Shown here one piece after another: positions 3,758-46,431 of a DNA stretch of 64,000 nucleotides; position 1 is the stretch's first letter, and every line of letters begins with the position of its first letter. The position numbers and the translations under genes are program-made. The notes below the pieces were generated by a model, which saw only the letters and a program-made list of their open reading frames with translations, searched no databases and had not been told where the DNA came from. Where the stretch lies: positions 192,410 through 256,409 of the forward strand of contig JBBDJR010000006.1 of NCBI GenBank assembly GCA_040879785.1. Direction: 5' to 3'. This stretch comes from Candidatus Pacearchaeota archaeon (GTDB taxonomy: Archaea > Nanobdellota > Nanobdellia > Pacearchaeales > GW2011-AR1).

Positions 3758-3816
3758 GCAAAAAACAATAATTAGGTATTTAAATAATTTAAGAAAATGA
3801 AAAAGACTTGTCCAGC

Positions 3817-4197: not shown

Positions 4198-4273
4198 ACA
4201 AGTTATAGGGTTATTTTGTTTAAAAATGTTTTTATTCGGCTTCGCAAACTAATCTATGACATGAAAGAAACAA

Positions 4274-4582: not shown

Positions 4583-4590
4583 TTTATTTA

Positions 4591-5623: not shown

Positions 5624-6030
5624 TTTTTATCAATATGTATTACATACTCCTTATTTGTATTAGTATCCAAATTAACAGTTACATTAACATCATTAAAAAA
5701 AGAATAGCTATAACCTCCGTCTTCCCTAAGCTGAACCGTGACAACATTATCTCTAACCATGACAACCTCATCAAGATTCCTGTTTTCATCTTCGGCAATT
5801 TCTATCGCATCTTCCATATCAAGAGAAACGATTGTGTAAGGCTCCGCAGAATCAACGATAAGTGCAATTTGTTTTGCATGCTTTTCCTCTAAAACTGCCG
5901 CCCCGCCCATTTTTGAAAAAACAAATAAAACAAGTATTGAAATAAAAACAATATTAAGAATAAGAAAAATTATATTCTCGGTTAATATATTTCCCTTCTT
6001 ATTAGATTTAATCTTCCTTAATTTTTTCAT
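5620..6030 (-). CDS. Type IV pilin-like protein
   Basis: MKKLRKIKSNKKGN followed by ILTENIIFLILNIVFISILVLFVF. Confidence 0.5.
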   Translation of the reverse strand: MKKLRKIKSNKKGNILTENIIFLILNIVFISILVLFVFSKMGGAAVLEEKHAKQIALIVDSAEPYTIVSLDMEDAIEIAEDENRNLDEVVMVRDNVVTVQLREDGGYSYSFFNDVNVTVNLDTNTNKEYVIHIDKK

Positions 6031-6036
6031 TTTATT

Positions 6037-22014: not shown

Positions 22015-24066
22015 TCAAAACCTATTTCTAAACCAACCAAGAATTCTTTGGATAAGTCCTCCGCTTACACACTCTCCGTCAAGACATAAATTACTGTCGC
22101 ACTCAAAATTATTCTCACATTGTTGCCCCTCACCTGACTGAGGAATAAAATCATATCCAAGACCGCAATACTCTTCTCCAGATCGATACCCTATTGGAAC
22201 ACAACTACCTTCTAGCTCACAAGAATTGAGGCAATCCTCAACAGAAACATTTGCAGTAGGCTGCAAATCAGAGGGGTATTTATCTGTGTAAGCTAACATC
22301 AGAGGCAACACAGCTTCCGATTCAAAAAAGTCTCGGGACCCACTCAACAGAACAAGAGAAAGGATTTTATTATCATGCGTCCATACGAAACCCTCTCTAC
22401 CATTAGAAATATAATGCCTGCCCTCATCATCTTCAACAAATATGTTCTCTTCAAGAGATACCCCTTCAACTACAAAAGTCCCTCCGGGACTATACCCTAC
22501 CTGTGCCCCCTCTCCAAATACAGATGAAAGAAAGAATTCTATAAAATCGTCTGAATCTATTTTCTCAGAATACTCTATAATATGTAACCCTACAACGGGA
22601 TAATTCAACTCACTCCAAGAAGGATAACTATATTCTGCAAAATAAAGAGAACAGTGTTCATCTGGGTTAAATCCTCCCACCTGATTAGAACATTCCTCTC
22701 CTTCAGGCAAATATGCTCCTCTCGAGAAAACTCCTTCACCAATATCCTCAGCGATTATTTTATCCTCCGAAACCTCTGGAACAGAGAGTTCTAAATTAAT
22801 CACTGCACTATTTGAGTTTTCAACCTCGCTATTCTCATTTCCGTCTCGAACAATATTTATACTCTCAACACTTACATCCACAAAAGATTCAACAGAATCT
22901 TCTGGAGTAGGAAAGTAAGGCAGATTCCTTGATCCACTTTCATTTAACTCATTCCATCCTTTTGTGATATTTGTTACAGAAAGATCATAATAAAATCTAA
23001 CTCCTCCTATCTCTGTAATTGCTATCAAAGCCTCAGGTCCTACGGGAAATCGGATTATGTCTCCTGTTTTTACCTCGTATTCTCCGTAAGAATCTATGAT
23101 TTTTGTGGAGGAAGGAGCCTCTAATGCTTCTTCCCTAAACAAACTAAAAGTTGCTTTCTTGATGCCACCAACATATTCCTGGAAAACAACGTCGTGGACA
23201 GATAAAACCACGTTTCCATCAGACAATGTTTGACTTTCTCCTGCAGACATATAGTTTGTAAATTCTGGATTAGGCATGTTTAAGGACTCAGGGTCTCTTC
23301 TTACAAAAAATGAGGCTACATCTGAATTCTTACTTGGACTATGTCCAACAAATCTTAATTCAAGAGTATATTTTATATCTCCAAGGCTTATAATCATTGA
23401 CTGCCCTCCTTGCAAAGAATAATTTTCTCCCTCCAATCCGAGACACGCTCCATCATAACATCCATTGGGACATTTATATTCCTCAGTGAAATTAGTTTGA
23501 CTATCTCCACAATATCTTTCAATAAGAGTTTGGTTATCTAAACAATATTCAGGATATGTCATATTTTCCTCGGAATTTTTTACTCCAAGATTTCCTGAAA
23601 CAGATCCTTTAACATAATAATTAATCCCTCCATCGCTATCACTACATATAACCTCTACTCTTTCTTCTTCAACAACGCACTCATAACTCTGTTTTTCAGA
23701 AGTATAATCTCCAACATTCCCTCTATCTTTCCAACCTTCAATAGTTTCCATTTTATACTCTGGAGATGCTGTTACATTTTCTCCATAAAACTTTTCACAA
23801 TATTCAATACGTCCTTCTTCTGTTTCTCCAAGTTCTGCTCCAGAAACCCCGTCAGGGTCAGTATTCCATTCTCCTGATTCAACATCAAAATGCTGGTTAA
23901 CCTTCCCCTGCCAAAATGCAACTCTCGGAGTCAAATCTTCTTCTGGACCATCATCAGTCGCACTTCCGGTTATCCCAAAAAAATCAGAAAACCAACCAGC
24001 AGAAACAATTCCGACAGAAAGAACTAATATAAGCGAGAGTGAAATTAATGCTAAACCCCTTTTCAT
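22015..24066 (-). CDS. Large secreted Cys-containing protein, function unknown
   Basis: N-terminal signal peptide (MKRGLALISLSLILVLSVGIVSA). There are CxDSDGG...YC modules near the N-terminus and a Cys-rich C-terminus (CENNFECDSNLCLDGEC). Confidence 0.5.
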   Translation of the reverse strand: MKRGLALISLSLILVLSVGIVSAGWFSDFFGITGSATDDGPEEDLTPRVAFWQGKVNQHFDVESGEWNTDPDGVSGAELGETEEGRIEYCEKFYGENVTASPEYKMETIEGWKDRGNVGDYTSEKQSYECVVEEERVEVICSDSDGGINYYVKGSVSGNLGVKNSEENMTYPEYCLDNQTLIERYCGDSQTNFTEEYKCPNGCYDGACLGLEGENYSLQGGQSMIISLGDIKYTLELRFVGHSPSKNSDVASFFVRRDPESLNMPNPEFTNYMSAGESQTLSDGNVVLSVHDVVFQEYVGGIKKATFSLFREEALEAPSSTKIIDSYGEYEVKTGDIIRFPVGPEALIAITEIGGVRFYYDLSVTNITKGWNELNESGSRNLPYFPTPEDSVESFVDVSVESINIVRDGNENSEVENSNSAVINLELSVPEVSEDKIIAEDIGEGVFSRGAYLPEGEECSNQVGGFNPDEHCSLYFAEYSYPSWSELNYPVVGLHIIEYSEKIDSDDFIEFFLSSVFGEGAQVGYSPGGTFVVEGVSLEENIFVEDDEGRHYISNGREGFVWTHDNKILSLVLLSGSRDFFESEAVLPLMLAYTDKYPSDLQPTANVSVEDCLNSCELEGSCVPIGYRSGEEYCGLGYDFIPQSGEGQQCENNFECDSNLCLDGECVSGGLIQRILGWFRNRF

Positions 24067-25615: not shown

Positions 25616-26047
25616 TTATCCAACAAAAACAAAATAAGCTACGACTCCAAGCAAAATTAAAATTCCAAGGCCTAAAAGAACCCACATCCACCATTTTGAG
25701 CCTCCTTGTTGTGGCATGGGCTGTCCTGCAACCCCTGGCTGTGTTCCCGGAGCTCCCTGTCCTGGCATCTGACCTTGAGCGCCTTGTTGCGACTGAGGTT
25801 GTCCTGCCTGTCCCTGGGGCATTGAAGATGTTTGTGGTGTCCTTGTCTGAGGAGTTTGTGGCGTTTGCGGAACTTGCGGCTTTTGTGAATTTTGGGTTCC
25901 GGCAGATTGTTGAGTTTGAGAAGCCTGTTGAGATGGTTGTTGCCTCCGAACCTGAGAAGACTTTCTCTGTGTTCCGGACCCTTGTGAAGTTCCTGAAGAC
26001 GAACTGCTTGAAGAACTCATCCCTCTTTTATTATTCTGTTGCGGCAT
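25616..26047 (-). CDS. Q/P/S/G-rich low-complexity protein with a C-terminal TM anchor
   Basis: First ATG is at 26047 (the track start is TTG). TATA aaaatttataata lies about 30 nt upstream. The C-terminus is WWMWVLLGLGILILLGVVAYFVFVG. Confidence 0.4.
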   Translation of the reverse strand: MPQQNNKRGMSSSSSSSSGTSQGSGTQRKSSQVRRQQPSQQASQTQQSAGTQNSQKPQVPQTPQTPQTRTPQTSSMPQGQAGQPQSQQGAQGQMPGQGAPGTQPGVAGQPMPQQGGSKWWMWVLLGLGILILLGVVAYFVFVG

Positions 26048-26086
26048 AAACAAACTAAGAAAAACCCTATTATAAATTTTACTCTT

Positions 26087-26896: not shown

Positions 26897-27420
26897 TTTC
26901 TACTTATATGCTTATTTCCTTTAATATAAAATCTAAACTTTTTTGGGAGGTCTTTTCTAACTCCTATCCTAAAATCCTCTCCAATCTCAAAAACATCATT
27001 ATTTCCCTCTAACCACAAATCTTCAGAATCAAAAGCATTTTCCTTATGAAACTTTTTATCTATATTCATTGCTTTCGTCAACAGCCCCGGGCCTTTCGTA
27101 TTCAAATCAAAATTCAACGGCTCCAAGGCACGAATCAAAACAGCCTCTGCTTTCCCTTCTTCTTTCGTTACAAAATTCAAAATCCAGTTATCATGAACTC
27201 CATAAACAAGAATCGTTCCAGGAACCATTAACATAGTCTTCCTCAAATCCCCGTTCTGCACTGCCCGGGACGCAGGATCACTCTCTCCAAAATACGCCTC
27301 TGTTTCAACAATTTTTGCTTTCAGTAATTTACCCCCAAACCTCCTGACTAAAATCTTTCCGAGCAAATCTCTTGCAACTCTGTCTGCGGGCCGACTAAAA
27401 AACTCTTTTTCCGGTCTCAT
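26893..27420 (-). CDS. AAG/MPG-family 3-methyladenine DNA glycosylase
   Basis: FFSRPADRVARDLLGKILV...IVETEAYFGESDPASRA matches the MPG family pattern. There is a 4-nt overlap with the downstream gene. Confidence 0.8.
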   Translation of the reverse strand: MRPEKEFFSRPADRVARDLLGKILVRRFGGKLLKAKIVETEAYFGESDPASRAVQNGDLRKTMLMVPGTILVYGVHDNWILNFVTKEEGKAEAVLIRALEPLNFDLNTKGPGLLTKAMNIDKKFHKENAFDSEDLWLEGNNDVFEIGEDFRIGVRKDLPKKFRFYIKGNKHISRK

Positions 27421-27486
27421 AAAATCTTTAAGTAGAGGATATTTAAAAGATGTATGTAAAATTGATATTCTTAAAAGAATAATAAA

Positions 27487-28395
27487 ATGGCTTCAACAAA
27501 CCAATCTCCTTTCTACCAAAAAGCAGAGGCAAAGTTTTTAGCAGCGCAGACAAGCAGAGAGAAACTAAAATATCTCGACGAAATGATTCGTGAATGTCCT
27601 AAACATAAGTCTGCAGAAAAGATGCTTGCTCAGCTTAAAACGAGAAGAAAAAAACTCCTTGAAAAAATAGAAAAGGGAACAAAAAAAGGAAAGACAAACA
27701 AACAAGGAATAAAAAAAGATGATATGCAGGCAGTAATTATAGGGTTTACAAATACCGGAAAATCTTCTCTTCTTTCTGCACTGACAAACGCCGAACCCGA
27801 AATCGCTTCTTATGAATTTACAACAAAAACTCCTGTTATAGGAATGGCTCCTTTCTCAGGAACAAAAATACAATTGATAGAAATCCCTGCATTTGAATCG
27901 GAATATTATGATAAGGGAACAGTCAATACTGCAGATGTAATCCTCATTCTCGTAGAGGACCTCGCGCAAATAGAACAAATTAAAAAAGACCTTGACAACG
28001 CACCGGGAAAAAGAATAATTGTATTCAACAAAAAAGGCGACGAAGACATTAGGAAACTGGAAGCAACATTAAAATCAAAAAAATACAACTTCATAATCCT
28101 AAACGCGAAAGAACCGGGGGAAGAAACTCTTAATAAATTAAAAGAAAAACTCTTTCACAGTTTCGGAAAAATCCGCATCTACACAAAAGAGCCCGGAGAA
28201 GAAAAAAGCGAAAAGCCAATTGTCCTTGAGCCAGATTCAACAGTCAAAGATGTCGCGGAAAAAATTCTTCACGGATTCTCAAAAAAAGTCAAAACTACTT
28301 TTGTGACAGGGCCCTCATCAAAATTCCCAAAACAAAAAGTCGGCCTCCAACACAAACTCAAGGATTTGGATGTTGTGGAGTTTAGGACTTGGTGA
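27487..28395 (+). CDS. DRG/Obg-like GTP-binding protein with a C-terminal TGS domain
   Basis: G1 is [11 protein letters not shown] and G4 is FNKKGD. The C-terminal TGS-like segment is [10 protein letters not shown]...VVEF. Confidence 0.7.
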
Positions 28396-28448
28396 AATAT
28401 ACTCTTCAATACAATAATTGATTTAAATCTATAAAACATAGATTGCTA

Positions 28449-28748
28449 ATGAAACTTGTCAAAAAAGATGTTGTACAAATAATAACTACTACAATTATAG
28501 GACTCCTTCTCACTATCTTTGGTGGTTTGGCCTTAGAAAAGGATATATTAGTTGGGATAATTTCTATTTTAATTGGTTTCTCACTAGTATATATTCTATT
28601 TTACACTCTTCAAATAGAAGAAAACTCTACCAATGCCGAAAAAAACAAGGCATCAATAGAAGAATTATCAAACAAGTTCGATAGAATGGAAGATTTAATA
28701 AATATAAAAAGCGATATTAAGATGTTAAAGGAGAAAATTAAAAGATGA
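28449..28748 (+). CDS. Small membrane protein with a coiled-coil tail
   Basis: First ATG is at 28449 (the track start is TTG). Two TM helices are followed by a K/E-rich helix. Confidence 0.35.
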   Translation: MKLVKKDVVQIITTTIIGLLLTIFGGLALEKDILVGIISILIGFSLVYILFYTLQIEENSTNAEKNKASIEELSNKFDRMEDLINIKSDIKMLKEKIKR

Positions 28749-28855
28749 ATAAAAAGGGACGGTTTACTGCAAGTGATATGTTAGAGGTAATAAAAATAAT
28801 TATCATAGCAATAATTGGTTTTATAATTATTCGCGCTCTTTTAGGAGTGGCATAA
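28745..28855 (+). CDS. Possible 36-aa single-TM mini-protein (not in the ORF track)
   Basis: My translation is MNKKGRFTASDMLEVIKIIIIAIIGFIIIRALLGVA. There is an ATGA overlap with the upstream stop. It ends 2 nt before the 25-bp repeat. Confidence 0.25.
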   Translation: MNKKGRFTASDMLEVIKIIIIAIIGFIIIRALLGVA

Positions 28856-28857
28856 AG

Positions 28858-28882
28858 ATTATTCATAATTCCAGGTTTCTAA
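28858..28882. repeat. 25-bp direct repeat, left copy (attattcataattccaggtttctaa)
   Basis: Perfect match to 31043..31067. It is intergenic here, whereas the right copy is the 3' end of a CDS. Confidence 0.95.
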
Positions 28883-28953
28883 GTTTATGTTATTGAAAGA
28901 AAAAAATTGAATCTCCGATAACAGATTTCAGATTAACAAGAAGGTAGATTGAA

Positions 28954-30960
28954 TTAAGGTCTTCCAGAAGATTTTCCTGGAGAAGAAGGCGCATTTCCGG
29001 AAGATCCCGACGACGGCCCTTGACTTGCAGACGTTTTTGATTTGACTTTATCTTGTATATCTTTTATCTTGTTTCTTGCAGGGTTTTCAAGACCATTTAA
29101 AACCTCATCAATATCTGAATCTTCTTTTTCCTCGTCAGATTCCTCTCCTGTAACTCCTGCTTCTGTTTCTTCAGGTACCGGCTCTGAAGATTCGTCTGTT
29201 GTATCCTCTTCTGTTTCACTTTCGTCTTCCTTTTCTCCTTCATCAGACTCCGAAGGAATTCCTGAAGTCGGTCCTTCTCCTCGAGATTCTCTTATTGCAT
29301 TAATTGAACTTTCTCTTCCTCTTGCACTTGCTTCAATAGCCCTCTCAATCGAAGGTTTTGCAACATCCGGGACTTTATTATATACATCTCCGAGAACCCT
29401 TAAATGGGTCGACGTTGCCTCTGCCACCAACTCATCAACTGAACTTGTATTTTCCCCAAGACCTCTCGCAGTCTCAGAAACTCTTATTGAATTGTTAATG
29501 CTCCTCTCATAATCTTCAAGAGCCTTTCCTGTACCTTCTAAATCTCCTTTCTCACTTAGTGCTTCCGCCTCTGCAAGCCTCTCTTCAGAGTGTCTCACGT
29601 GAAGCTTTGCTTTTTCCAGAGGGTCAAAAGTTAATGCCAGTCCAATCCTCTCAAAAAGTCTTTCGATACCATAAAAAACATCTCCAGGTTTAGTTCCCGG
29701 ACTAACTCTTTCTGAATCTTCTTCTGTTTCCTCAGAGTCCTCTTCAGTTTCATTTGTTTCTTCAGTCTCACCTTCTGCCCCTTCCGTGTCTTCCTCAGTT
29801 ACATTAGCAACATATGCATAAGCCTCAAAAGCATCAACTCTTCCAAATCCTTGAGTGTTATCATCAAGACCCAAATCAATAGAAGTATCTCTGAAAATAT
29901 CTTTTAAATCTTCTGAAGTCAATGAGGAATCTTCCTGAAGAAGCAATGCAATTAATCCTGAAACGTGGGGTGTTGATGCAGAGGTTCCCGAACCAATAGC
30001 AAACTCTCCATCATTCCTCGTGGATATTATCGAAACTCCCGGAGCCAAAACATCTGGCTTAATTCTCCCATCGGCTGTAGGCCCTCTTGAACTCCAATCA
30101 GGAACATTATCATTATTGTCTGATGCTCCAACAGCAATACCTTTTTGAGAGCATCCAGGGATTGTGATTGTCTCAGAGTCTGGTCCAGAATTTCCTGCTG
30201 CAATAACTACTACAAGTCCTTTATCCACGGCACTATCAACTGCCCTCGACAAAACATCTGTTCCGTCACAACTATCTACTTCTGCTCCAAAACTCATGCT
30301 TGCAATGTCTGCACCATTTTCAAGAGCCCAGTCCAATCCTTCAATTATATCGCTGGAGTACCCAACTCCCTCTTGATTCAAAACTTTCACATTAAACAAA
30401 TTCGCTCCCGGAGCAACCCCTTTGTATTCTTCATCATTTGAAGCGACTATTCCTGCAACATGCGTCCCGTGTCCGTGTAAGTCATTAGTTCCTTCTCCAG
30501 TATAATCAATCTCCAAATCAACACTCAATGCAGAATGTTCATCATAAATCCCTGTATCAAAAACAGCAACATTTATCCCTTCTCCAGTAATGTTAAAATC
30601 CCATACTTCATTCGCACGAATTTTTGGAACGCTTTCATCCAACACAAGGCTAACCTCGTAATCCATTTCTGCAGATTCTACAAAAGGTCTCTCAACGATT
30701 CTATCGACAGCGTTCTTTGGAACCGAAACCGAAACTCCATTAATTACTCCATACTGATATTTGACACTCGCGCCATCTGATTTTATCGTGCTTATTTCCG
30801 AAGGTCCTGGAACCTGATTAAATAAAAGAATCAAATCAACTCTCTCACTCTGCCCTTTTGTCTCAAGAAAACTCGCAAGGCCCTCACTGACTTCTCCTGC
30901 AGAAACAAACGAAACAGCAAGAGCAAATACAAGTGCAACAATCACCAACTTTTTTAACAT
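28954..30960 (-). CDS. Secreted S8 subtilisin-like serine protease with acidic linkers and a C-terminal helical domain
   Basis: Signal peptide is present. The catalytic triad contexts are AVFDTGI, HGTHVAGIV and GTSASTPHVSG. An E/T/D-rich linker follows, then the helical segment FYGIERLFERIGLALTFDPLEKAKLH. Confidence 0.9.
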   Translation of the reverse strand: MLKKLVIVALVFALAVSFVSAGEVSEGLASFLETKGQSERVDLILLFNQVPGPSEISTIKSDGASVKYQYGVINGVSVSVPKNAVDRIVERPFVESAEMDYEVSLVLDESVPKIRANEVWDFNITGEGINVAVFDTGIYDEHSALSVDLEIDYTGEGTNDLHGHGTHVAGIVASNDEEYKGVAPGANLFNVKVLNQEGVGYSSDIIEGLDWALENGADIASMSFGAEVDSCDGTDVLSRAVDSAVDKGLVVVIAAGNSGPDSETITIPGCSQKGIAVGASDNNDNVPDWSSRGPTADGRIKPDVLAPGVSIISTRNDGEFAIGSGTSASTPHVSGLIALLLQEDSSLTSEDLKDIFRDTSIDLGLDDNTQGFGRVDAFEAYAYVANVTEEDTEGAEGETEETNETEEDSEETEEDSERVSPGTKPGDVFYGIERLFERIGLALTFDPLEKAKLHVRHSEERLAEAEALSEKGDLEGTGKALEDYERSINNSIRVSETARGLGENTSSVDELVAEATSTHLRVLGDVYNKVPDVAKPSIERAIEASARGRESSINAIRESRGEGPTSGIPSESDEGEKEDESETEEDTTDESSEPVPEETEAGVTGEESDEEKEDSDIDEVLNGLENPARNKIKDIQDKVKSKTSASQGPSSGSSGNAPSSPGKSSGRP

Positions 30961-31042
30961 TTTGACTTCTTAACAATATGATGTGACTTGTATTTAAATT
31001 TTATGGAGGAATTGTTTTAGTAGAGTAGAATTAAAGTAGGAA

Positions 31043-31067
31043 ATTATTCATAATTCCAGGTTTCTAA
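31043..31067. repeat. 25-bp direct repeat, right copy
   Basis: Identical to 28858..28882. On the minus strand it encodes the last 7 codons plus stop (LETWNYE*) of ORF 31044..31799. Confidence 0.95.
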
Positions 31068-31799
31068 ATCAATATTGTCAAAGTCATAGAATTTATTGTT
31101 AAGTAAATTGTATTGTCCAGGAAATTTGTTATCAGTTTTAAAATTGAAGGGGTTCTTTTGGAACAAATAAATCTGTGCTTTAGGTGGAACTCCCGGATAA
31201 GAAAGCAAGATCCATTTCTCTCTACCCTGAACATATTCGTTCCTAAATTTAATTTTCTTATTTAGAATTAAATAAGCCATAAGATGTTCCTCTAAAAAGA
31301 AATCTTTTTGAATTTTTGTTAATTTTCTTTTAAAGAACTTAGCATCTTCTTTCAAATATTTTTGAAACTTTTTGTCTTTTTTGTAAATATCCTTGATTTT
31401 CCTAAGATATATATTAAAATCTCCCTCAAGATTAAGATATATGTTGCCCCAAGTTTCAAAATGAAATGCATGTTGAATTTGCATCTTTTTTCTCTTTTTC
31501 CAAAAAGATTTTCTTAGACCTTTTTTATGGTGGATTGATTCTGCCATAAATTTGTCTTTTAATTTTTTTGCAGACTCTCTTGAATTTAGATACAAAAAAT
31601 CACAATAAACAAAATTTAACCCTATTTTAGGTTCTCCTACTTTGCTATCTCCAAGAAAATCAATCCAATTTACACAATTTGAGACTTTTTGTGATGTTGA
31701 AATATTAGACATGGAAATAGGAAGCCAAATAATTCCCCAATCCTTCAGAGGCTTTATATCAAAAAATTCATTCTTCTTTGGGATTTTTCCTTTTGCCAT
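31044..31799 (-). CDS. Cyclodipeptide synthase (CDPS)-like protein
   Basis: 251 aa. IWLPISMSNISTSQKV resembles AlbC LIGISAGNSYFSQKN (Ser37 pocket). NFVYCD resembles VVYVD, DFFLEE resembles NYVLAE (Glu182), and LLSYPG resembles LCYHID (Tyr202). The AlbC and YvmC sequences are recalled from memory. Confidence 0.6.
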   Translation of the reverse strand: MAKGKIPKKNEFFDIKPLKDWGIIWLPISMSNISTSQKVSNCVNWIDFLGDSKVGEPKIGLNFVYCDFLYLNSRESAKKLKDKFMAESIHHKKGLRKSFWKKRKKMQIQHAFHFETWGNIYLNLEGDFNIYLRKIKDIYKKDKKFQKYLKEDAKFFKRKLTKIQKDFFLEEHLMAYLILNKKIKFRNEYVQGREKWILLSYPGVPPKAQIYLFQKNPFNFKTDNKFPGQYNLLNNKFYDFDNIDLETWNYE

Positions 31800-31840
31800 T
31801 TTATTTATAACTAATTTTTTAGGGGTTTGTGAATCTTTAA

Positions 31841-32926
31841 CTATTTAGTAATTTTCAATTTTTTAACAACCTCATAAAGTTTTTTTGCTTCTTTATTTTT
31901 CTCGAAATGTTCTCGAACAGGTTTGATTAGTTTATCCAATTCTGTTGCACAGCTATTCTTTAAATCAAGAGGATGAAGTTTCTTATTAACAAAATCTTTT
32001 TCCATTTCATCATAGTTAGAATAAACCAATTCTCCCCCAAATTTTTCTGGACGATTAATCTTAACACTTTCAGTGTTCCTGAAGATTATGTATTTGAAAT
32101 ATTCCAATATAGGATTTCCTTCCACAATCCCTTCTGGACAGTACGCCTTACTGATTTTCTCTTTCAATTCCTTTAAGGAATCGTGCATATAGATGCATGT
32201 TTTAGGATCCGATTTAGACATCTTAGAAGCCATTAGTGTTTCCTCGTCACTTCCTTTTTTCTGAAGACCTTGAAGTCCCAAGAGAATATGATGGTGTATT
32301 GCTACAGGTTTTTTCCATCCGTGTTTTCCCGCAATATCTCTTGCCAACATATTTGCCCTACGTTGATCCATACCTAACTGACAGATATCTAAATCCATTT
32401 CAAAAATATCTGCAACCTGCATGCTTGGATAAAATAGCTGTGCGGTACTAAGGGTATCTCCCTCTTTTCTTCCTGCAATAGTTAGAGATTTTTTAGTCCT
32501 ATTGATGCTTGTAGATTTAGCAACCCTAAAAACCCTATCCCAATACTTAATATTATCCATTAGTTCGCTTGCCCATATTATTTCAACTTTTTTTGTATCA
32601 ATTCCGCACGCCTTCCAGACTTCAATAAAATATTTTCCTGCTAATTGAATCTTTTCAAGATCTCCTCCTAATTTATTATTTATAAACCCAAAATAATCTG
32701 CCAAATATAATTTAAATTTTATTCCTGTCTTTAACATATTTTTGAGATTAGTTGCCCTTAATAATCCAAAATGGATCGGAGCGACTCCAGAAGGCTCAAA
32801 TCCATCATAAGCTGTAATTGTGTCTCCTTTCTTAAAAAGATCTCTTAGCCCGTCTTCACTAACAATCTCTTGGGCAAATTCTTTTATCAAATCAATCTTC
32901 TCATCAACACTCATTTTCTTTGCCAT
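31841..32926 (-). CDS. tyrS: Tyrosyl-tRNA synthetase (archaeal type)
   Basis: The KMSKS motif is present. The C-terminal block KISKAYCPEGIVEGNPILEYFKY...RPEKFGGEL...LHPLDLKN closely parallels M. jannaschii TyrRS. Confidence 0.9.
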   Translation of the reverse strand: MAKKMSVDEKIDLIKEFAQEIVSEDGLRDLFKKGDTITAYDGFEPSGVAPIHFGLLRATNLKNMLKTGIKFKLYLADYFGFINNKLGGDLEKIQLAGKYFIEVWKACGIDTKKVEIIWASELMDNIKYWDRVFRVAKSTSINRTKKSLTIAGRKEGDTLSTAQLFYPSMQVADIFEMDLDICQLGMDQRRANMLARDIAGKHGWKKPVAIHHHILLGLQGLQKKGSDEETLMASKMSKSDPKTCIYMHDSLKELKEKISKAYCPEGIVEGNPILEYFKYIIFRNTESVKINRPEKFGGELVYSNYDEMEKDFVNKKLHPLDLKNSCATELDKLIKPVREHFEKNKEAKKLYEVVKKLKITK

Positions 32927-33026
32927 AACATCTAAAGCAATCTCTGATTATTAAAGGTTTTTATTATACTCAACGCCAGTAATATTTAACTATTGAAATA
33001 TCTTACAAAAATAAAAAGAGTTGAAA

Positions 33027-34262
33027 ATGCTCGCAGAAATAATTTTATTCCTGGGCCTTGGGATTCTTGCAGGAACGTTTACTGGATTAATTCCAGGTAT
33101 ACATATGAATCTAGTAGGAGTTACACTAATCTCAGTTTACGCTTCAATTCTCTCAGGACTCAATCCTTTATTCCTCGCAGTCTTTATTACCTCGATGGCA
33201 ATGTCCCATACATTTATTGATTTCATCCCGTCAGTGTTTTTAGGATGTCCTGACACAGATACGGAACTCTCTGTTTTGCCCGGACACGAACTTCTCAAAA
33301 AAGGTGGTGGGTTTGAAGCAGTTTCGCTAACAGCATATGGTAGCCTCGCGGCGGTCTTTCTTCTTTTTTTAATTATATATCCTTCATTTTTTCTGGTTCC
33401 AAAAATAAACAACTTCCTTCTAAAAAGCATTGAACTCTCTCCATCCCTGAGCATTTCCTTTATGCCTATTTTATTAATCCTTGTTTCTTTTCTTCTGATT
33501 TTTATGGAAGAAAAAAAGCAGGCAGGATTCCTGGTTTTTCTAATTTCCGGGGCCTTAGGTTTAAGTGTTCTTAACATAGATTTTCTTAAAGAACCTCTGC
33601 TCCCTCTTCTTACAGGACTTTTCGGTTCCTCAATGATAATTTTAAGCATAAGAGCAAAAACAAAAATTCCTCCTCAGGAAATTTCAAAACCAGAATTAAA
33701 GGGAAATTTTTTGCGTCCGTTGTTTGGCTCTCTTTTGGCTTCACCTCTTTCAAGCATGCTTCCCGGACTCGGCTCAGGACAAGCAGCAATAATAGGAAAC
33801 ACCTTCACGGGCCGCAAAGACAATCTGAAAGGGTTTCTCGTTCTGCTCGGAGCAACCAACACGCTTGTTATGGGATTTTCATTCATCACATTTTATCTAA
33901 TAGGAAGAACAAGGACGGGTGCGGCCGTCGCAATCAATGATTTAATCGGGGGATTTTCATGGCAGGTCTTAACTATCATCCTCGCAGTGGTTTTAATTTC
34001 AGGAATAATTTCTTTCTTCTTAACAATAAAAACAGGAAAAATCTTCTCGACTAAACTTCCAAAAATAAACTATCTTAAAATATCTCTTTCAGTTCTCGTA
34101 CTTCTCACAATAATCGTATTTCTTATCTCAGGATTTTTTGGATTGGTTGTTTTCGCAGTCTCGACCCTCACCGGAATTTTTTGCATAAACACTGGAGCAA
34201 GAAGAACTCAAATGATGGGTTGCTTATTGCTTCCAACCATTGTTTTTTATTTGATGTTGTAG
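33027..34262 (+). CDS. TctA/DUF112-like polytopic membrane transporter
   Basis: First ATG is at 33027 (the track start is TTG). GLIPGIHMNLV and LSVLPGHELLKKGGGFEAVSL resemble the TctA-family pattern. Confidence 0.5.
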   Translation: MLAEIILFLGLGILAGTFTGLIPGIHMNLVGVTLISVYASILSGLNPLFLAVFITSMAMSHTFIDFIPSVFLGCPDTDTELSVLPGHELLKKGGGFEAVSLTAYGSLAAVFLLFLIIYPSFFLVPKINNFLLKSIELSPSLSISFMPILLILVSFLLIFMEEKKQAGFLVFLISGALGLSVLNIDFLKEPLLPLLTGLFGSSMIILSIRAKTKIPPQEISKPELKGNFLRPLFGSLLASPLSSMLPGLGSGQAAIIGNTFTGRKDNLKGFLVLLGATNTLVMGFSFITFYLIGRTRTGAAVAINDLIGGFSWQVLTIILAVVLISGIISFFLTIKTGKIFSTKLPKINYLKISLSVLVLLTIIVFLISGFFGLVVFAVSTLTGIFCINTGARRTQMMGCLLLPTIVFYLML

Positions 34263-34273
34263 AAAGAAATTTA

Positions 34274-34837
34274 TTAGTAGCGCCGCCCCTGATAGTTTAA
34301 AGGCCTGCCAGTGTTTTTTCTTGAAGAAATATTTCTTGATCCTTCTCCCCACGCAGCAATACCTATAATAACAAGATTTACGAGAGATATCAACAACAGG
34401 ATTGCCCACCACCCTGGCCTTCCAATTCTCTCAAACATCTTCCAACTCCAAATCAGGACGATAACTATAGAAACCAGAACAAATAGATAATAAATATATT
34501 CAACCACTCCAGATATTGTATCAATGAAAAATCCGGCGATAAAGGATACTCCCATGACTACCCAAGGCCACCAGTGCATATCAGACGCCTGAAAAGCGAT
34601 AATCGTTGGGCCTATTACAGGAATCCATGCGAGTCCCGGCGTACTAAGCCCTGCCTTCTGGCCAATTCTCATATAAGCAAAGGACACGTAGATATAAAGA
34701 GCAATTCCAATCAATATTGATACAATAAGTATTGCAATAAAAAACGCCATAAGGCCTCCAAACAACTGCCCTGCTTCACCCTCACTAATTGTATGACTGA
34801 CGCTAAAAAGAAAATTCTCTAATAATGAAAACGACAT
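34274..34837 (-). CDS. Membrane protein with DUF5684-like motifs
   Basis: YMRIGQKAGLSTPGLAWIPVIGP and FERIGRPGWWAILLLISLVNLVI resemble that family. Confidence 0.4.
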   Translation of the reverse strand: MSFSLLENFLFSVSHTISEGEAGQLFGGLMAFFIAILIVSILIGIALYIYVSFAYMRIGQKAGLSTPGLAWIPVIGPTIIAFQASDMHWWPWVVMGVSFIAGFFIDTISGVVEYIYYLFVLVSIVIVLIWSWKMFERIGRPGWWAILLLISLVNLVIIGIAAWGEGSRNISSRKNTGRPLNYQGRRY

Positions 34838-34869
34838 GAAAACAAGAGAGAAACATAATTTAAAAAGAT

Positions 34870-35496
34870 TTACTTTTCAAACTTCTTAGATGCATTAAAG
34901 AACATGACTATGACCAATATTAATGCTACTAATCCCAATATCTGGGCTATAAAAAAACCCATTGTCGCAATTATGCCCAAATAAACAGACAAGTCAAAGG
35001 CACTTACATCCCACGCCCATAAATACATTGTATGAGAAATAGGATAAATAATAGAAATGATAATTGTAAAAATTCCTGTAGTTTTGGCCAATTCTACATT
35101 TTTTCCAATTTTTACAAGACCTATCCCAAAAAAGATCATTCCCACAAAAGAAGCTATAATAAGGAGCCATGAGACATTAGCGCTCCCTAAGATTAATGTT
35201 TCAAATGAAAGACTAATAAAGTATAGCACTCCTATAAAAAATAAAATAAAGAGGGTCCACGAAGCATAAACCAAAAGTTTACTCTTAAATCTCTTTCCTA
35301 ACTCGGCAAATCCGTTAACGACCAAAAGTAAATTTAAAATAAATGCCAAAAATAATATTGTTGCAAACGTTATATGCATTCCTACACTGAAAATATCTAC
35401 TCCTATTAAAGCTAGGAAAAAAATTGCAAAGGCCAAAAATGGAAGAACAATCAAACTCCAAGCAGCAACCTTCAACGGCTTTTTAATGCCAAACAT
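34870..35496 (-). CDS. Polytopic membrane protein, unknown function
   Basis: 208 aa with about 6 TM helices. Confidence 0.4.
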   Translation of the reverse strand: MFGIKKPLKVAAWSLIVLPFLAFAIFFLALIGVDIFSVGMHITFATILFLAFILNLLLVVNGFAELGKRFKSKLLVYASWTLFILFFIGVLYFISLSFETLILGSANVSWLLIIASFVGMIFFGIGLVKIGKNVELAKTTGIFTIIISIIYPISHTMYLWAWDVSAFDLSVYLGIIATMGFFIAQILGLVALILVIVMFFNASKKFEK

Positions 35497-35533
35497 GAAA
35501 CCCCCAAGATTCTAACATTTAAAAACATTCCTT

Positions 35534-38500
35534 TCAAAACCACTTCCCTAAATTTTCCTGTTGTTCTGGTTCCTTTCCAAAAACAGAATCAATATATCTT
35601 TTTGTTAACTCAAGACTTTGTTTCATATATGTTGAAAGATTGTACTTGTTCGCGATATCGAGAGCAGGCTCAAGATATTTTTTAATTCCGCCTTCATGCG
35701 TTGTAAAAATAATTTTCCCATCGCACTTTAAACACTTTCCTGAGATTGGAGGTCTCCTCATAATCTCGTTACATGCAACACACCTAAAACTCTGCATCGA
35801 AAACTTTCTCAAATTTCCTTTCATATCTTTGATAAAATGCCTTTCAATAACTAACCGCGCGGTCTCCGAAGTGTTCGCCGCGCGAATCTTTTCAACAAGC
35901 TCCATCTGATGCTGAACTTTTTCATGCATTGTAGCAAGAATCTTATAATTAGAACAGGCTACCCCATCATTAATATTATTTGTATCATGAGTAAAACCAA
36001 TATTTATGAAAGGGTCCTTACCTTCTTTTAGCGCCTGGCGAACATCATAGACCCTTACTGTAGAAGAATGCTCTCTTTTATCTGCAGCCCTATAAAGTTC
36101 AAGAGGATACTCTCTAACGAGTTCCAAATCAAGAATTTGATCGTCAACTTCTCCCGCACTTATTTTAGCATTCAAAACAAGCGGAGCATCCTGAGTTCCT
36201 CCTCTGTGACCTGGAAGAAAACTCCTCGAGAAATTCAAAAGGACATCTCCTAAAAGCATCACCGCAGCCTCGTCCCCATCACAATCTCTTCTAACCGCCG
36301 CATGCATATAAGGACTCGCAAACATTCCCAAGGTACTCGAAAAACCAATAATCCTACAAACAACACCTGCACAATTATGGGGCGCCATAAAAACACCTAA
36401 CTTCCCGACGAGGTCTTCTTTTTTCTTAACATTATATAATGGTTTTTCCCCATAAAGATTTACAAGAGTATCATCAATAAAATTACAAACTCTCGTGAAA
36501 ACCTCGTCAGCCCTTCCTTCGGGAGAATGAGGGGAACTAGGAAGAAGAACATCATGAGGCTTCAGTTCAAGTATCTGGTCATCTCTTGCAAGCTCATTTC
36601 CCTCAATATCTTCAGTATACCCAATCTCTCTAAGCTTTTCAATACTCACAAAAATCTCTTTAGGTTTAAATGAAACAAGAGGCATTTCTGTTGCATCAAA
36701 TCTTACTGTGCCGTCCTTATTTACCTGTAAATCATGAATCGCTCTAAAAATCCCTTTTTCAAGCGGCTCTATCGAATGACTTTCAGAACTTGTTCCCCTA
36801 ACACCTTTAATCAACTGAGGCATTTCAGAATCTTTCAAACCCACTCTCTCTTTTGCCTTCTCCATATAGTGCCTTATATCTATTGGCCTAAAATAGTTCG
36901 GCCGCGAAGTTGGAAACTCTTCATTTTTATGTTTTTCACAAACCTCCAAACTTGTTCCCTCACATTCAGAACAATAAAACATCTTTTTACATTTACTTCC
37001 ACAATCCTCACAAACAGGATAAATTGTTTCCTTTTTACAACCTTCAGAATCACAAAAATACACAGGGAAATTATTCTTTATTGTTCCAACCTCACACGCC
37101 TCCTGAACGCTTCTAAACCTTCCTCCTTCATTCCCAACAGGAAATAAAACATTGGGGCTTCCGATTAACTTTCGAAGTTTTGCTTTCTCCGGACGACCCA
37201 TCCTCGCCCCTACAAAATCCCCTGCCTTGTCTCTTATTTCAAAATGAGAAACATGATTAATTGCAGAAAGAATTATCTCTTTTTCATCCTCTTGTTTTGA
37301 ATTATCTTCTTTATAAAAAAATTCCTTTAATTTTTTCTCAGTTTCCAGCATCTCTTCTTTAATAGATTCCTTTTCTTCAATAGCGAGAGGATTAATTCCT
37401 AAATTTACAAGAAATGCCTTTGCCTCATCACAGCCTATAATAACATTTTCTATAGTGGTTCGGTGTTCGATTCCTAAAAGTTCTAATGCCCTTTTACCTT
37501 CCACAAACTCCTCTTGATCTTTTTTCCCATAAGGAAGAATTATCTTTTTATCAACATTAGATCGTTTAAGCCACGAAACCAAACCTAAAAGTTGTTCCTT
37601 AGAAAGTTCGGTCCAATAAAAAATATACTTTGGATAAAGTGAAACTCCATTCTCCTCACTCATCTTCAACGCATCGTCAAAACCAACATTGAAGGAATTA
37701 ATTTTTTTCTCAAGCCTGGGATTCTTTTCTCTCAACTCAAGCCCCCAGATTTCTTCAACATATCCTGGCTTAATCAGAGTAGCATTCCTGTTTGTCACGT
37801 CGCTAAAAGGGAATAACAAGTCTCCAATATAAATTATCTCTTCGATATCATTATAGATTCTCTTAGCTTCTTCCTTATCATAAATTCTCTTCACGCTTCC
37901 ATCAAATAACTTAACTATCGGACCCTCAATACTATCACAAGAAGTAACGATACACCCTTTTGTAGGTTTCTCGATTTTTAACTGAGTTCCTATCGCAAGA
38001 AACCCGTCTGTAATCTCCATAGTTGCAGGATGAATCGCCACTGCACTAAATCCAGAGCTTCTTCCTCTTCCATACCTAAACCTAAACGCACCTGACTCTG
38101 AGGGGTGTCCGAAAATAGGTCTGCCTGCAACAATATCATTAATGTACGTCGGAGAATCATCAACTTTTCCTTTATCTCTCTTCTCGTGGAGTTCTATATA
38201 CTCATCAAGAAAATCAAAACCCGAAGATTTCAATCCCTTTACCTTCATGCTTTTTAACAATCTAAGACCTTTTGCAGCTTTCTGTGCAAGCCCTTCCGAG
38301 AAAATCAAACACATTCCTCCCCTAATCCTATTCGTCTTAACTCTCTCCAGATTCTTATAGTTTGAAACTTCAAACTTTTCTGTAGGGTCTCCTTCTACCT
38401 GAATTGGGAGATTTTTAGCTAAGAAAACTGCTTCCTCTTTTGTAGGCATGTACTGCAAATTTGTGACCCTATCATGATAATCCTGATTCTCAACAACATA

Positions 38501-39058
38501 TCTCTGAATCTCGTCTTCTGAAGGATCGTATTTTGCATACCCAAATGTTTCCCTAAGATAATCTATTAACATCAAGACTAAACAAGATGCGGTCGTTCCT
38601 GCACTCCTTATTGGTCCTGAAAAATAAGCTACAAAATAATCCTTGCCTTCTTTTGTTTTTTCTGTTTTCAGTCCGGTAAATCCTTCAATCGGAGAAGAAA
38701 CAACCCCTAGAGTTGTATAGGCAAAACCCACTCTTATCCCTGCTTCAATCGCCTCAATCAAAGATGAAAACTTACAATATTTTTGTTTGGCTACCTCTTC
38801 CGCTATGACAAAAGAAACCATCGGATCAAGCTTCCCGTGTTCTTCCTCAAGCTCAAGAATTCTCTTTGCGATTCCCGTCCCTTCCATCTGAGGACAAACT
38901 GTAGAAATAAGCCCAACAACCTTTTCAGCCAGGCTTCTTGCAAGAGGGACTTCTACCTTAGGCACAGGATCAAATCCTTTCGCCCTCGCTTTGTTCATAA
39001 CATCGTAGACCTTTCTCGTCTGACTTTCTATTTCACTAAGATATTGTTGCGTGTTCAT
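35534..39058 (-). CDS. dp2: DNA polymerase II (PolD) large catalytic subunit DP2
   Basis: 1174 aa. It has multiple Cys clusters (CDSEGCKKE..CEDCGSKC, CVACNEIMRRPPISGKCLKCDG) and PolD-typical blocks (GRPIFGHPS, RRDCDGDE). No intein is evident. Confidence 0.9.
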   Translation of the reverse strand: MNTQQYLSEIESQTRKVYDVMNKARAKGFDPVPKVEVPLARSLAEKVVGLISTVCPQMEGTGIAKRILELEEEHGKLDPMVSFVIAEEVAKQKYCKFSSLIEAIEAGIRVGFAYTTLGVVSSPIEGFTGLKTEKTKEGKDYFVAYFSGPIRSAGTTASCLVLMLIDYLRETFGYAKYDPSEDEIQRYVVENQDYHDRVTNLQYMPTKEEAVFLAKNLPIQVEGDPTEKFEVSNYKNLERVKTNRIRGGMCLIFSEGLAQKAAKGLRLLKSMKVKGLKSSGFDFLDEYIELHEKRDKGKVDDSPTYINDIVAGRPIFGHPSESGAFRFRYGRGRSSGFSAVAIHPATMEITDGFLAIGTQLKIEKPTKGCIVTSCDSIEGPIVKLFDGSVKRIYDKEEAKRIYNDIEEIIYIGDLLFPFSDVTNRNATLIKPGYVEEIWGLELREKNPRLEKKINSFNVGFDDALKMSEENGVSLYPKYIFYWTELSKEQLLGLVSWLKRSNVDKKIILPYGKKDQEEFVEGKRALELLGIEHRTTIENVIIGCDEAKAFLVNLGINPLAIEEKESIKEEMLETEKKLKEFFYKEDNSKQEDEKEIILSAINHVSHFEIRDKAGDFVGARMGRPEKAKLRKLIGSPNVLFPVGNEGGRFRSVQEACEVGTIKNNFPVYFCDSEGCKKETIYPVCEDCGSKCKKMFYCSECEGTSLEVCEKHKNEEFPTSRPNYFRPIDIRHYMEKAKERVGLKDSEMPQLIKGVRGTSSESHSIEPLEKGIFRAIHDLQVNKDGTVRFDATEMPLVSFKPKEIFVSIEKLREIGYTEDIEGNELARDDQILELKPHDVLLPSSPHSPEGRADEVFTRVCNFIDDTLVNLYGEKPLYNVKKKEDLVGKLGVFMAPHNCAGVVCRIIGFSSTLGMFASPYMHAAVRRDCDGDEAAVMLLGDVLLNFSRSFLPGHRGGTQDAPLVLNAKISAGEVDDQILDLELVREYPLELYRAADKREHSSTVRVYDVRQALKEGKDPFINIGFTHDTNNINDGVACSNYKILATMHEKVQHQMELVEKIRAANTSETARLVIERHFIKDMKGNLRKFSMQSFRCVACNEIMRRPPISGKCLKCDGKIIFTTHEGGIKKYLEPALDIANKYNLSTYMKQSLELTKRYIDSVFGKEPEQQENLGKWF

Positions 39059-39064
39059 TTTAAT

Positions 39065-40048
39065 TCATTGAAGAACCACTTCGTGGTCTGCTTCGGTTTC
39101 CTCTCTTTCTTTTTCTAAAAGATCCTCATACTCCTTTGATTTCTCTGACAGGCAAAAAAGATTTCCTTTTTGGACAAACCCCGGATCAACATGTCTAAAT
39201 TTTTTAATTAATTTTACGCTTTCGTGATTTGAAATATCTTTTTTTGAGATAATATTAAATCCATTTTTTAGCATTTCAAGCTTCCCTTTTATTTCTCTAC
39301 TTGATTTTTCTTCTAGCACGTCAAGTATCTGCATATCTGTAGAATTAGAAACTCCCTCAAAAGAAATTATTCCTTCCTCTATAGATTTTCTCAGGATTTC
39401 TGAAAGAATATGATATCTTGCTCTTGCCTCATATCCCGCCCAGTGATTTTTGTTTAAGTGAATATAATATTTAGCAAACTTCTCCGCAGATATCTGGGAA
39501 CAAAAAACAATCTTTTGATTAAAATTTCTCAAACATTCATAAAGATCCTTAGCATCTTTCTCAGAATGAAGTAATGAAATTTCTCTTAAAGAATAATCCA
39601 CCCTATCAGCACACAACTCGGGGGCGGGCCTTTCAAGAAGAGAAAAACTTTCTATATCTGCTATTTTCTTAGACTTAAACCCGTACTTTTCCAATATTTC
39701 TGCTAACTCACTTTTTTTGATAAATTCTTCTAAAATTTCATCTTGATAGTTCTCCTTAGAAGGGTCTCCTACCATCTGATCAATAACATGAGAAAATGCG
39801 GTGTGAGAAACATCGTGAAGAAGTCCTGCAACCTGTTCCTCTAAATTGGCTCCAAGCCTCCTAAGCAAAATAAGAGTTCCTAATGAATGTTCATACCTAG
39901 AGAACACCTCATCTAGATGGTAATAGTCTTTAGGCATTCCAAATTGAGACACCCCTTTCAGTCTTTGAAGAGAAGACGAACCCATAAGTTCAACTAAGAC
40001 AGGCTCGTTAATTTCTTCTTCTCCATAGACTCTATCTTTTATTTTCAT
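39065..40048 (-). CDS. HD-domain phosphohydrolase of the COG1078/SAMHD1-like type
   Basis: KDRVYGEEEINEPVLVELMGSSSLQRLKGVSQFG...FSRYEHSLGT...AGLLHDVSHTAFSH. There is an ATGA overlap with dp1. Confidence 0.65.
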   Translation of the reverse strand: MKIKDRVYGEEEINEPVLVELMGSSSLQRLKGVSQFGMPKDYYHLDEVFSRYEHSLGTLILLRRLGANLEEQVAGLLHDVSHTAFSHVIDQMVGDPSKENYQDEILEEFIKKSELAEILEKYGFKSKKIADIESFSLLERPAPELCADRVDYSLREISLLHSEKDAKDLYECLRNFNQKIVFCSQISAEKFAKYYIHLNKNHWAGYEARARYHILSEILRKSIEEGIISFEGVSNSTDMQILDVLEEKSSREIKGKLEMLKNGFNIISKKDISNHESVKLIKKFRHVDPGFVQKGNLFCLSEKSKEYEDLLEKEREETEADHEVVLQ

Positions 40049-46313: not shown

Positions 46314-46431
46314 AAACACCCTCCAAAAATACACTTTTATCATAAATCAAACACCTAAACACCCTTTAAACACCATCAAACAGCCTGTTTAAACACCCCC
46401 AAACAGCTGTTTATTTTTTAAACAGCTGTTT
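46314..46431. repeat. Iteron-like array upstream of gene 45604..46218: five aaacacc half-sites and three aaacag(c)ctgttt palindromes
   Basis: aaacacc is at 46314, 46349, 46357, 46368 and 46391. aaacagcctgttt is at 46378-46390. The perfect palindrome aaacagctgttt is at 46401-46412 and 46420-46431. Confidence 0.85.

Follow-up and report, generated by a model that had tools for sequence, protein, structure and literature searches.

Integrase-encoding islands and proviruses in the 3' ends of genes are bracketed by direct repeats, one of which is the functional gene end, and relatives of their hosts carry empty sites. Orphaned 3' gene ends also occur in the effector loci of Rhs, contact-dependent inhibition (CDI), and type VI secretion systems (T6SS), for which illegitimate recombination facilitated by homology was proposed (PMC5361080), and the H47 island of E. 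coli, a recombinase-less element of 13 kb with imperfect direct repeats, was shown by PCR to be excised and integrated (PMC5426353). Integron gene cassettes, including archaeal ones, are single-gene units at a fixed site. Here, these systems are compared with a locus in a 64,000-nucleotide stretch of contig JBBDJR010000006.1 (assembly GCA_040879785.1) from a Candidatus Pacearchaeota archaeon; the whole stretch is referred to as the window, and positions are counted from its first letter. At this locus, identical 25-bp direct repeats bracket the gene of a secreted S8 protease (subtilase), and one of them is the 3' end of the neighboring open reading frame (ORF) ORF251. The original prediction, made from the letters of the window alone, had read this arrangement as a decayed integrase-type element. 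With a probability of roughly 60%, the repeats are instead the scar of homology-guided recombination at a conserved gene end, and the protease unit was spread by host recombination in a variable hot spot.

The locus resembles the Rhs, CDI, and T6SS loci in that a module is anchored through homology in the conserved upstream part of a gene, the resident 3' end is displaced as a fragment, and the site is a hot spot with varying contents. The differences from those loci are that ORF251 does not encode a toxin and has no variable 3' end, that an unrelated protease gene, complete in itself, forms the cargo, that the displaced relic measures only 40–54 nt, that the hosts are DPANN archaea, and that the route is inferred. 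As in H47, the direct repeats are extended and imperfect, contain blocks of identity, and enclose no recombinase, and mobility is ascribed to host functions; however, the insert is a single gene unit of 2.2 kb, and its movement is deduced solely from comparative divergence. The bracketing repeats, the functional gene end in one of them, and the empty sites in relatives are shared with integrase islands, whereas no integrase, excisionase, or mobility gene lies in or beside the insert in the lineages examined, the cargo is an ordinary DPANN gene with native codon usage, and instead of a bare core the second copy consists of a longer gene-end relic that has decayed. Although the single-gene unit at a fixed site recalls an integron cassette, neither a nearby integron integrase nor an attC-like fold is present, the gene has its own promoter, and the repeats are a coding gene end.

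Direct repeats and the ORF251 gene end

The 25-mer ATTATTCATAATTCCAGGTTTCTAA is found on the plus strand at 28858–28882 and 31043–31067 in direct orientation and, even when up to three mismatches are allowed, nowhere else in the 64 kb, where 100 shuffles gave an expectation of 0. Perfect identity of the copies ends at both edges (g/a before and g/a after the repeat). The geometry described in the original prediction is right, and the observation is real and beyond chance: the two identical repeats enclose exactly one gene, the S8 protease with a promoter of its own, no integrase lies between them, and the right copy holds the last seven codons and the stop (LETWNYE*) of the ORF at 31044–31799. 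The local gene order, from left to right, is M16 peptidase, a 145-aa low-complexity ORF, FmrO-like methyltransferase, 3-methyladenine glycosylase, GTPase (+), ORF101 (+), small36 (+), left copy, protease (-), right copy, ORF251 (-), and tyrosyl-tRNA synthetase (TyrRS) (-) (Table 1). Each junction is reproduced base-exactly by a unitig-type contig of run SRR27977663, the left one by L083 (window 27303–28933) and the right one by L001 (window 30520–40100). The window also contains both DNA polymerase D subunits, Cdc6, an archaeal-type TyrRS, and ribosomal proteins, and its closest database relatives are labelled Pacearchaeota.

ORF251 belongs to a family with 74 homologues of approximately 250 aa in DPANN archaea and bacteria of the candidate phyla radiation (CPR/Patescibacteria). 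Its closest relatives end in ...(D/N)(L/I)E(T/N)WNY(E/D/N), for example DLETWNYE, and because this C-terminus is shared, the right copy is the native gene end. The DNA of the tail is unusually conserved, with 24/25 positions of the core retained in contig L082 and 23/25 in L003 at protein identities of 70–74%.

The left copy, in contrast, is non-coding and starts 2 nt past the stop codon of small36, a 36-aa ORF at 28745–28855 (+). A profile of the ORF251 3' ends of relatives, from which the gene of the window itself was excluded, was searched with nhmmer and had only two significant places in the window, namely the native end and 28858–28897 (E 1e-5). A 150-nt gene-end profile aligned to 28859–28912 (E 7e-5) and to 56 nt of L090, a contig from a co-occurring lineage. 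Over the 30 nt beyond the core, the left side matches the native end at 16/30 positions, compared with 8.8 ± 2.5 for random 30-mers of the window (P 0.004), and the corresponding extension in L090 matches at 18/30 (P 0.0004). In the ORF251 frame, the relic reads ..QFFSFNNIN-LETWNYE* and the native end ..KFYDFDNID-LETWNYE*. On these alignments, the left copy is best read as the still-perfect tip of a longer (40–54 nt) relic of an ORF251 3' end that is fused to the 3' untranslated region (UTR) of the protease gene. The left copy had been described as an orphan fragment in intergenic DNA, with similarity stopping at the repeat edges; it is indeed a non-coding segment between genes and perfect identity does stop there, but it is not a bare core, since the homology continues on its inner side over the length of the relic.

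Several relatives have the same convergent gene blocks without the protease. The ORF251 homologue of L091 (73% identical) faces a convergent GTPase gene 13 nt on, and that of L038 (43%) does so after a gap of 16 nt. L002/L006 (71%) have the order TyrRS-ORF251-ORF128-GTPase, L007 (60%) has TyrRS-ORF251 with the GTPase approximately 460 nt on, and in L085, which has no ORF251, TyrRS directly abuts the GTPase. Since TyrRS-ORF251 faces the GTPase in protease-free relatives, the protease is regarded as an insertion into a variable slot between conserved convergent blocks. If 28883–31067 were deleted from the window, ORF251 and the 36-aa ORF would converge with 2 nt between them, a spacing typical for such compact genomes. 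The slot contains nothing in L091, L038, and L085, ORF128 in L002, ORF141 plus the protease unit in L090, and ORF101/small36 plus the unit in the window and in L084. ORF141 and ORF128 are not homologous to each other, small36 has no homologue in any related locus examined, and ORF101 was found elsewhere only in L084, where it is a pseudogene.

Protease unit and its spread among co-occurring lineages

The protease contains Peptidase_S8 (PF00082; E 6e-58) and DUF5667 (E 2e-20) domains, and the catalytic triad motifs FDTG, HGTHV, and GTSAS are at residues 134, 164, and 325, respectively. An internal 51-nt repeat (29114–29164 and 29711–29761; 73% identity) codes for both acidic E/D/S/T-rich linkers flanking DUF5667. 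The best full-length database homologue is 57% identical, and the close matches are all from DPANN archaea and thus give no pointer to an origin beyond this group. Such an origin, for which a search of relatives outside the lineage had been suggested in the original prediction, was therefore rejected. The nearest full-length homologues, P0076 and P0077 (57% and 54%), are encoded in other Pacearchaeota in a different, partly conserved SOD/DUF1858 neighborhood, and no flanking repeats were found at either locus. A general tie of the protease family to ORF251 or to flanking repeats was rejected on these grounds. The protease gene is GC-richer than ORF251 (0.418 versus 0.279), as had been noted originally, but this contrast carries no foreign signature, because GC at third codon positions (GC3) is equal in both genes (0.260 versus 0.258; window mean 0.32). 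The excess derives from amino-acid composition, that is, from the first and second codon positions, and not from foreign codon usage; a foreign composition was rejected for the same reason.

The region between ORF251 and the protease gene serves as the protease promoter and carries a conserved CTCTACTAAAACAATTCC element at 31008–31025 and a TATA-like box CATAAAATTTAAATACAAG at 30987–31005. It is conserved in L082 upstream of the protease of that contig. The CTCTACTAAAACAATTCC element recurs 3' of the relic in L090 and 3' of ORF251 in L002, the latter as a related ACAACAAT-plus-TATA element. At the other end of the gene, a short hairpin at 28908–28930 reaches 5 nt into the relic; its fold is not significant against shuffles (z 0.2).

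The unit was found in further contigs of co-occurring lineages. In L081 (SRR27977663) and L082 (SRR27977659), an ORF251 homologue (73% aa identity) precedes a homologous promoter region with an identical CATAAAATTTAAATACAAG, after which comes the protease, the first 224 aa of which are 90% identical between the window and L082. L090 (SRR27977663), which overlaps the end of a contig of the metagenome-assembled genome (MAG) GCA_040879805.1, has the order GTPase (70% aa identity), an unrelated minus-strand ORF141, relic, and protease 3' UTR. Its relic and 3' UTR are 91% identical to window 28858–28933 (7/76 non-coding nt differ). The core of this relic agrees with the window at 24/25 positions, the difference changing TGG to TAG, so that it reads FNNLDLET*NYE*. 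The outer edge of the 25-mer is the precise point at which homology between L090 and the window stops. On its far side, L090 has a different gene as well as CTCTACTACAACAATTC, a 17/18 match to the element that follows the intact ORF251 stop in the window (31008–31025). Because a promoter-like element follows the relic, the originally duplicated segment comprised the gene end together with the downstream promoter and not the 25-bp core. In addition, the junction of relic and 3' UTR is colinear in L090 and the window, which indicates that the relic was formed once.

Contigs L001 and L081 both end at window 30520, and L083 and L090 both end at 28933. Contig pairs ending at the same shared k-mer are expected if two lineages of one sample share k-mers inside the unit, and L090 and L081/L082 presumably belong to one organism. 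If they are one genome, its repeat pair is identical at 23/25 positions, as expected of a passive scar rather than of a maintained attachment (att) site. A decayed locus is present in L084 (GCA_964439895.1; GTPase 95% aa identity) at 3800–4620. Here, ORF101 has an in-frame stop, the protease is reduced to codons 1–88 and frameshifted, ORF251 is reduced to its first 15 codons, and the TyrRS is of the other type; the locus is either a product of real gene decay or a co-assembly artefact.

Divergence was measured as synonymous and nonsynonymous differences (pS and pN) with bootstrap intervals, and values refer to the window versus L082 unless another contig is named. For codons 1–224 of the protease, pS is 0.33 (0.25–0.41), compared with 0.61 (0.48–0.74) for codons 1–180 of ORF251. 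In codons 181–251 of ORF251, pS is 0.54 (0.36–0.73) and pN is 0.04 (versus 0.20); at approximately codon 180, the identity of the proteins rises from 66% to 91.5%, which fits a crossover within the gene. TyrRS has only 41% aa identity to that of L081 (synonymous divergence, dS, 1.8), and the GTPase of L090 is saturated (pS 0.72), whereas the 76 nt of 3' UTR and relic differ by 9%. As the protease and the 3' UTR with the relic are far less diverged than their flanks, the unit is much younger than the surrounding genomes, and these values support horizontal movement of the protease unit bounded by both copies. Against L084, pS is 0.24 for the GTPase, 0.24 for the glycosylase, and 0.15 for the protease fragment, rising to 0.62 for FmrO and 0.68 for M16. 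Block breakpoints are located at approximately 26.9 kb and at approximately codon 180 of ORF251. To judge from these blocks, recombination has made a mosaic of the whole neighborhood, with breaks in more than one place, and such block-wise divergence speaks for a hot spot of homologous recombination by the host and against a decayed integrative element.

The breakpoint at approximately 26890 is sharp against the L084 contig CAYTPG010000021, coincides with the FmrO/glycosylase boundary, and indicates kilobase-scale mosaicism between Pacearchaeota lineages. Furthermore, two non-orthologous TyrRS types occur at the same place beside ORF251 among lineages that are closely related. One is shared by the window and L002 (62% identity), and the other, 30–41% identical to that of the window, is present in L081, L084, L085, L007, and L008 (coordinates compared: window 31841–32926 (-), L081:152–1150, L084:4580–5413, and L085:2782–3495). 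In L084, the switch of TyrRS type falls exactly at the start codon of ORF251.

Proposed recombination route and alternative explanations

Both the route of recombination and the non-involvement of a site-specific recombinase are inferred from these comparisons. In a first possible route, a linear fragment composed of the ORF251 3' part, the promoter, the protease, and the 3' UTR would be anchored by ORF251 homology and rejoined near the tail of the resident gene. A second route, by which a circle with a tail copy would be inserted through a single crossover, could lead to the same product, namely ORF251 end, promoter, protease, 3' UTR, and ORF251-end relic. Because ORF251 homology is then present at both ends of the unit, host homologous recombination could place it behind ORF251 in any related genome without an integrase of its own. 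Each transfer would exchange the outer part of the relic for the ORF251 tail of the recipient, which is under selection and constant. Refreshing of the core at each transfer would explain the perfect 25 nt beside the decayed inner 15–30 nt, with the 14 mismatches outside the core, and would also explain the 23/25 pair in the other lineage.

As a more far-reaching and tentative extension, the protease unit might be a recombinase-free single-gene cassette that carries a decoy tail of its target gene and repeatedly re-enters behind ORF251 in naive co-occurring DPANN genomes by host recombination, with the core being reset each time. The different left-flank genes of the window and L090 would then represent independent insertions rather than replacement of the flank.

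Several points weigh against the reading of the repeats as a recombination scar. None of the 14 mismatches that separate the relic from the native end falls within the 25-nt core (P 3e-5 for an even spread), an att site recognized by a recombinase also shows an identical core between diverged arms, and the perfect core is accounted for here only by the refreshing deduced above. The recombinase-family ORFs at 55700–56527 and 60458–60979 in the window could act in trans. Window 28934–30519, inside the protease gene, is backed by the window assembly alone among the contigs compared. The link between L090 and L081/L082 rests on co-occurrence and on contig ends at shared k-mers, and the left junction of L081/L082 was not directly recovered. 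A crossover inside ORF251 is backed by pN (0.04 versus 0.20) and not clearly by pS (0.54, interval 0.36–0.73). Finally, empty sites are known only from lineages with 43–73% ORF251 identity, and neither an exact-protein look-up nor a scan of JGI metagenomes, in which relatives reached at most 51% identity, recovered a near-identical strain with an empty site. The comparison with relatives that had originally been proposed has accordingly yielded protease-free sites in L091, L038, L002/L006, and L007, but none in a near-identical strain.

The first of these points also speaks for site-specific integration by a recombinase acting in trans, in which case the 25-mer would be the att core of a non-autonomous cassette mobilized by the XerA-like protein (gene at 55.7 kb), by some other integrase of the chromosome, or by a helper element. 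The perfect core between diverged arms, the bounding of the unit by the outer copy edges in two flank contexts, the lower age of the cassette relative to its flanks, and the presence of two recombinase-family ORFs in the window would all suit such an event. Nevertheless, it is considered unlikely. No integrase was found between the repeats or in the neighbors (ORF251, the small ORFs, and the GTPase), and no integrase-family Pfam match is recorded for the called genes of the cassette-bearing contigs (L081, L082, L084, and L090) or of the empty-site loci. The core, by inspection, has no 11-6-11 dif-type dyad symmetry, and its conservation in the right copy across lineages (24/25 and 23/25) is explained by coding constraint, whereas the pair of the other lineage agrees at only 23/25 positions and includes the TGG-to-TAG change. 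The relic is considerably longer than the core and in L090 even takes in the downstream flank. In addition, the block-wise breakpoints lie away from the repeats, and no viral or plasmid counterpart was found: IMG/VR has no match to the protease, to the 25-mer, or to a 21-mer taken from it, and PHROGs returned a generic protease family only. A virus or plasmid as carrier was rejected on the absence of a viral-contig counterpart in IMG/VR. The only recombinase-family ORFs in the window are 55700–56527 (+), which encodes a 275-aa XerA-like tyrosine recombinase with a Phage_integrase domain and a SAM-like N-terminus, and 60458–60979 (+), whose 173-aa product has only a 'Recombinase' (PF07508) domain and may be a fragment of a serine recombinase. 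An integron attC site or a structured RNA was likewise rejected, as the spacer fold is not distinguished from shuffles (z 0.20), no Rfam family matches, and no integrase is nearby; ARAGORN found no tRNA in the 64 kb, and no Rfam family reached its gathering score there.

The part of the original prediction that invoked a decayed attL/attR-type element is not supported, given the lack of an integrase in any locus examined, a relic longer than the core, native GC3, and block-wise divergence, whereas the insertion at the ORF251 end with duplication of the gene end is retained.

Old vertical inheritance of the insertion, with a more constrained protease and a left copy held identical to the right one by gene conversion, is improbable. 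The window and L084 do share a low-divergence block of approximately 5 kb that includes the protease, so that the insertion would predate their split, and at a pS of 0.15–0.24 the chance of no change in 25 nt is estimated by us as approximately 0.03–0.15, which is not extreme. On the other hand, the protease has half the pS of codons 1–180 of ORF251, with bootstrap intervals that do not overlap, and the non-coding 3' UTR and relic are 91% identical to those of L090 beside a GTPase that is saturated. The relic is abutted by unrelated genes, namely small36/ORF101 in the window but ORF141 in L090, and the TyrRS beside ORF251 is of two non-orthologous types.

An assembly artefact or chimera has little to recommend it, and the same holds for a regulatory or terminator motif of common occurrence. 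A protease that is approximately 90% identical in co-occurring lineages does fragment assemblies, and the contig breaks at 28933 and 30520 may reflect this; however, both junctions are exact in the unitig-type contigs L001 and L083, and the same relic junction appears independently in L090. A widespread motif, which had been named originally as an outcome that would speak against the insertion, was not seen in the 64 kb, where the 25-mer and the gene-end profile match two places only and there is no Rfam match. Least credible of all is a target-site duplication by a transposon-like or casposon-like insertion, since beyond the direct repeats around a discrete insert there are no terminal inverted repeats pairing the insert ends and neither transposase nor Cas1 among the genes of the interval, 25 nt far exceeds usual target-site duplications, the left copy belongs to a longer relic with 15–30 nt of diverged ORF251 homology and is not a pure target duplication, and the downstream flank seen in L090 is impossible by a staggered cut; a transposon, an insertion sequence, and a casposon were all rejected on this basis.

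Neighboring features and biological significance

The ORF251 family has no Pfam, NCBIfam, or PDB sequence match. An AlphaFold2 model of the protein (pLDDT 86) gave 30 top Foldseek matches that are all cyclodipeptide synthases (CDPSs; E 2e-5 to 2e-2, TM score 0.42–0.53), among them the Parcubacteria CDPS 7qaq, and a CDPS-like fold is predicted on this basis. The idea that ORF251 is a hidden recombinase was rejected in view of this predicted fold. An invariant Ser29 lies within the motif PISMS. In Pacearchaeota, ORF251 is situated directly 3' of TyrRS. Since CDPSs use aminoacyl-tRNAs, the adjacency to TyrRS is suggestive. In the distant MAG SI048_bin106, two ORF251 paralogues (L056:3455–4210 and 5983–6750) are separated by 1.8 kb, with two minus-strand genes between them, which may represent a further insertion of genes between duplicated ORF251 sequences.

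Table 1. Features of the protease locus and reconstructed junctions (window coordinates)
Feature	Position	Strand	Remarks
Ribosome-binding GTPase (MMR_HSR1 + TGS)	27487..28395	+	Conserved left anchor of the hot spot
ORF101, small membrane protein	28443..28748	+	Variable slot gene on the GTPase side
small36, 36-aa membrane ORF	28745..28855	+	Stop 2 nt from the relic stop
Left repeat copy	28858..28882	-	Perfect 25-nt tip of the putative relic; outer edge 28858 is the limit of L090 homology
Inner diverged relic part	28883..28912	-	Gives ..QFFSFNNIN when read in the frame of ORF251; the relic in L090 is colinear
Protease 3' UTR	28913..28953	-	28913–28933 (part covered by L090) has 0 mismatches to L090
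Secreted subtilase	28954..30960	-	Signal peptide, S8 domain, acidic linkers, DUF5667
ORF251 downstream region, protease promoter	30961..31042	-	Holds two elements, CTCTACTAAAACAATTCC and a TATA-like box
Right repeat copy	31043..31067	-	Native last 7 codons and stop of ORF251, plus 1 nt
ORF251, 251 aa, conserved in DPANN archaea and CPR bacteria	31044..31799	-	3' end is the proposed recombination target
Tyrosyl-tRNA synthetase (TyrRS)	31841..32926	-	Right anchor of the hot spot
Empty-site junction, as reconstructed			GGAGTGGCATAAAG + 25-mer + ATCAATATTGTC
Circle junction, as reconstructed			AAAGTAGGAA + 25-mer + GTTTATGTTATT

Other features were observed elsewhere in the window. A Cdc6/Orc1 gene (41699–42910, -) is located beside the gene of the DNA polymerase D small subunit, and approximately 3.5 kb from Cdc6/Orc1 there are tandem palindromes AAACAGCTGTTT at 46390–46430. 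The 24-nt motif TAACTAAGATAACCTAAGTGAACA has three copies at 46521, 47042, and 47399 (88–92% identical), two of which are upstream of small ORFs; the palindromes and the motifs may be origin or operator elements. The gene at 22015–24066 (-) encodes a 683-aa secreted Cys-rich protein with a match to Pfam APP_N (amyloid A4 N-terminal heparin-binding; E 7.6e-7, above the gathering score), which is unexpected in an archaeon. The 145-aa protein encoded at 25616–26053 (-) is rich in Q, P, G, and S, of low complexity, and has a C-terminal membrane helix; its gene has the maximum GC of the window (0.49), and its position is taken in relatives by a non-homologous small ORF. A prepilin peptidase (Peptidase_A24; 2733–3575, -) and a T2SSE-type ATPase (11197–13488, -) are encoded among several unannotated ORFs and probably belong to a type IV pilus-like or archaellum-like cluster.

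As interpreted here, the locus adds one more example to an already known type of recombination scar. It also holds two warnings for annotation, namely that perfect direct repeats duplicating a gene 3' end do not by themselves mean an integrase-driven element and that a GC contrast can be a pure amino-acid effect. Gene exchange in DPANN archaea is poorly known, and the locus provides a base-resolved example of gene entry and spread at a hot spot in their compact genomes. Co-occurring Pacearchaeota lineages appear to exchange kilobase blocks by recombination, and a conserved gene end can serve as the crossover point. If it is true that the cassette re-inserts repeatedly by means of its tail relic, this would amount to gene mobility of a simple kind that needs no recombinase.

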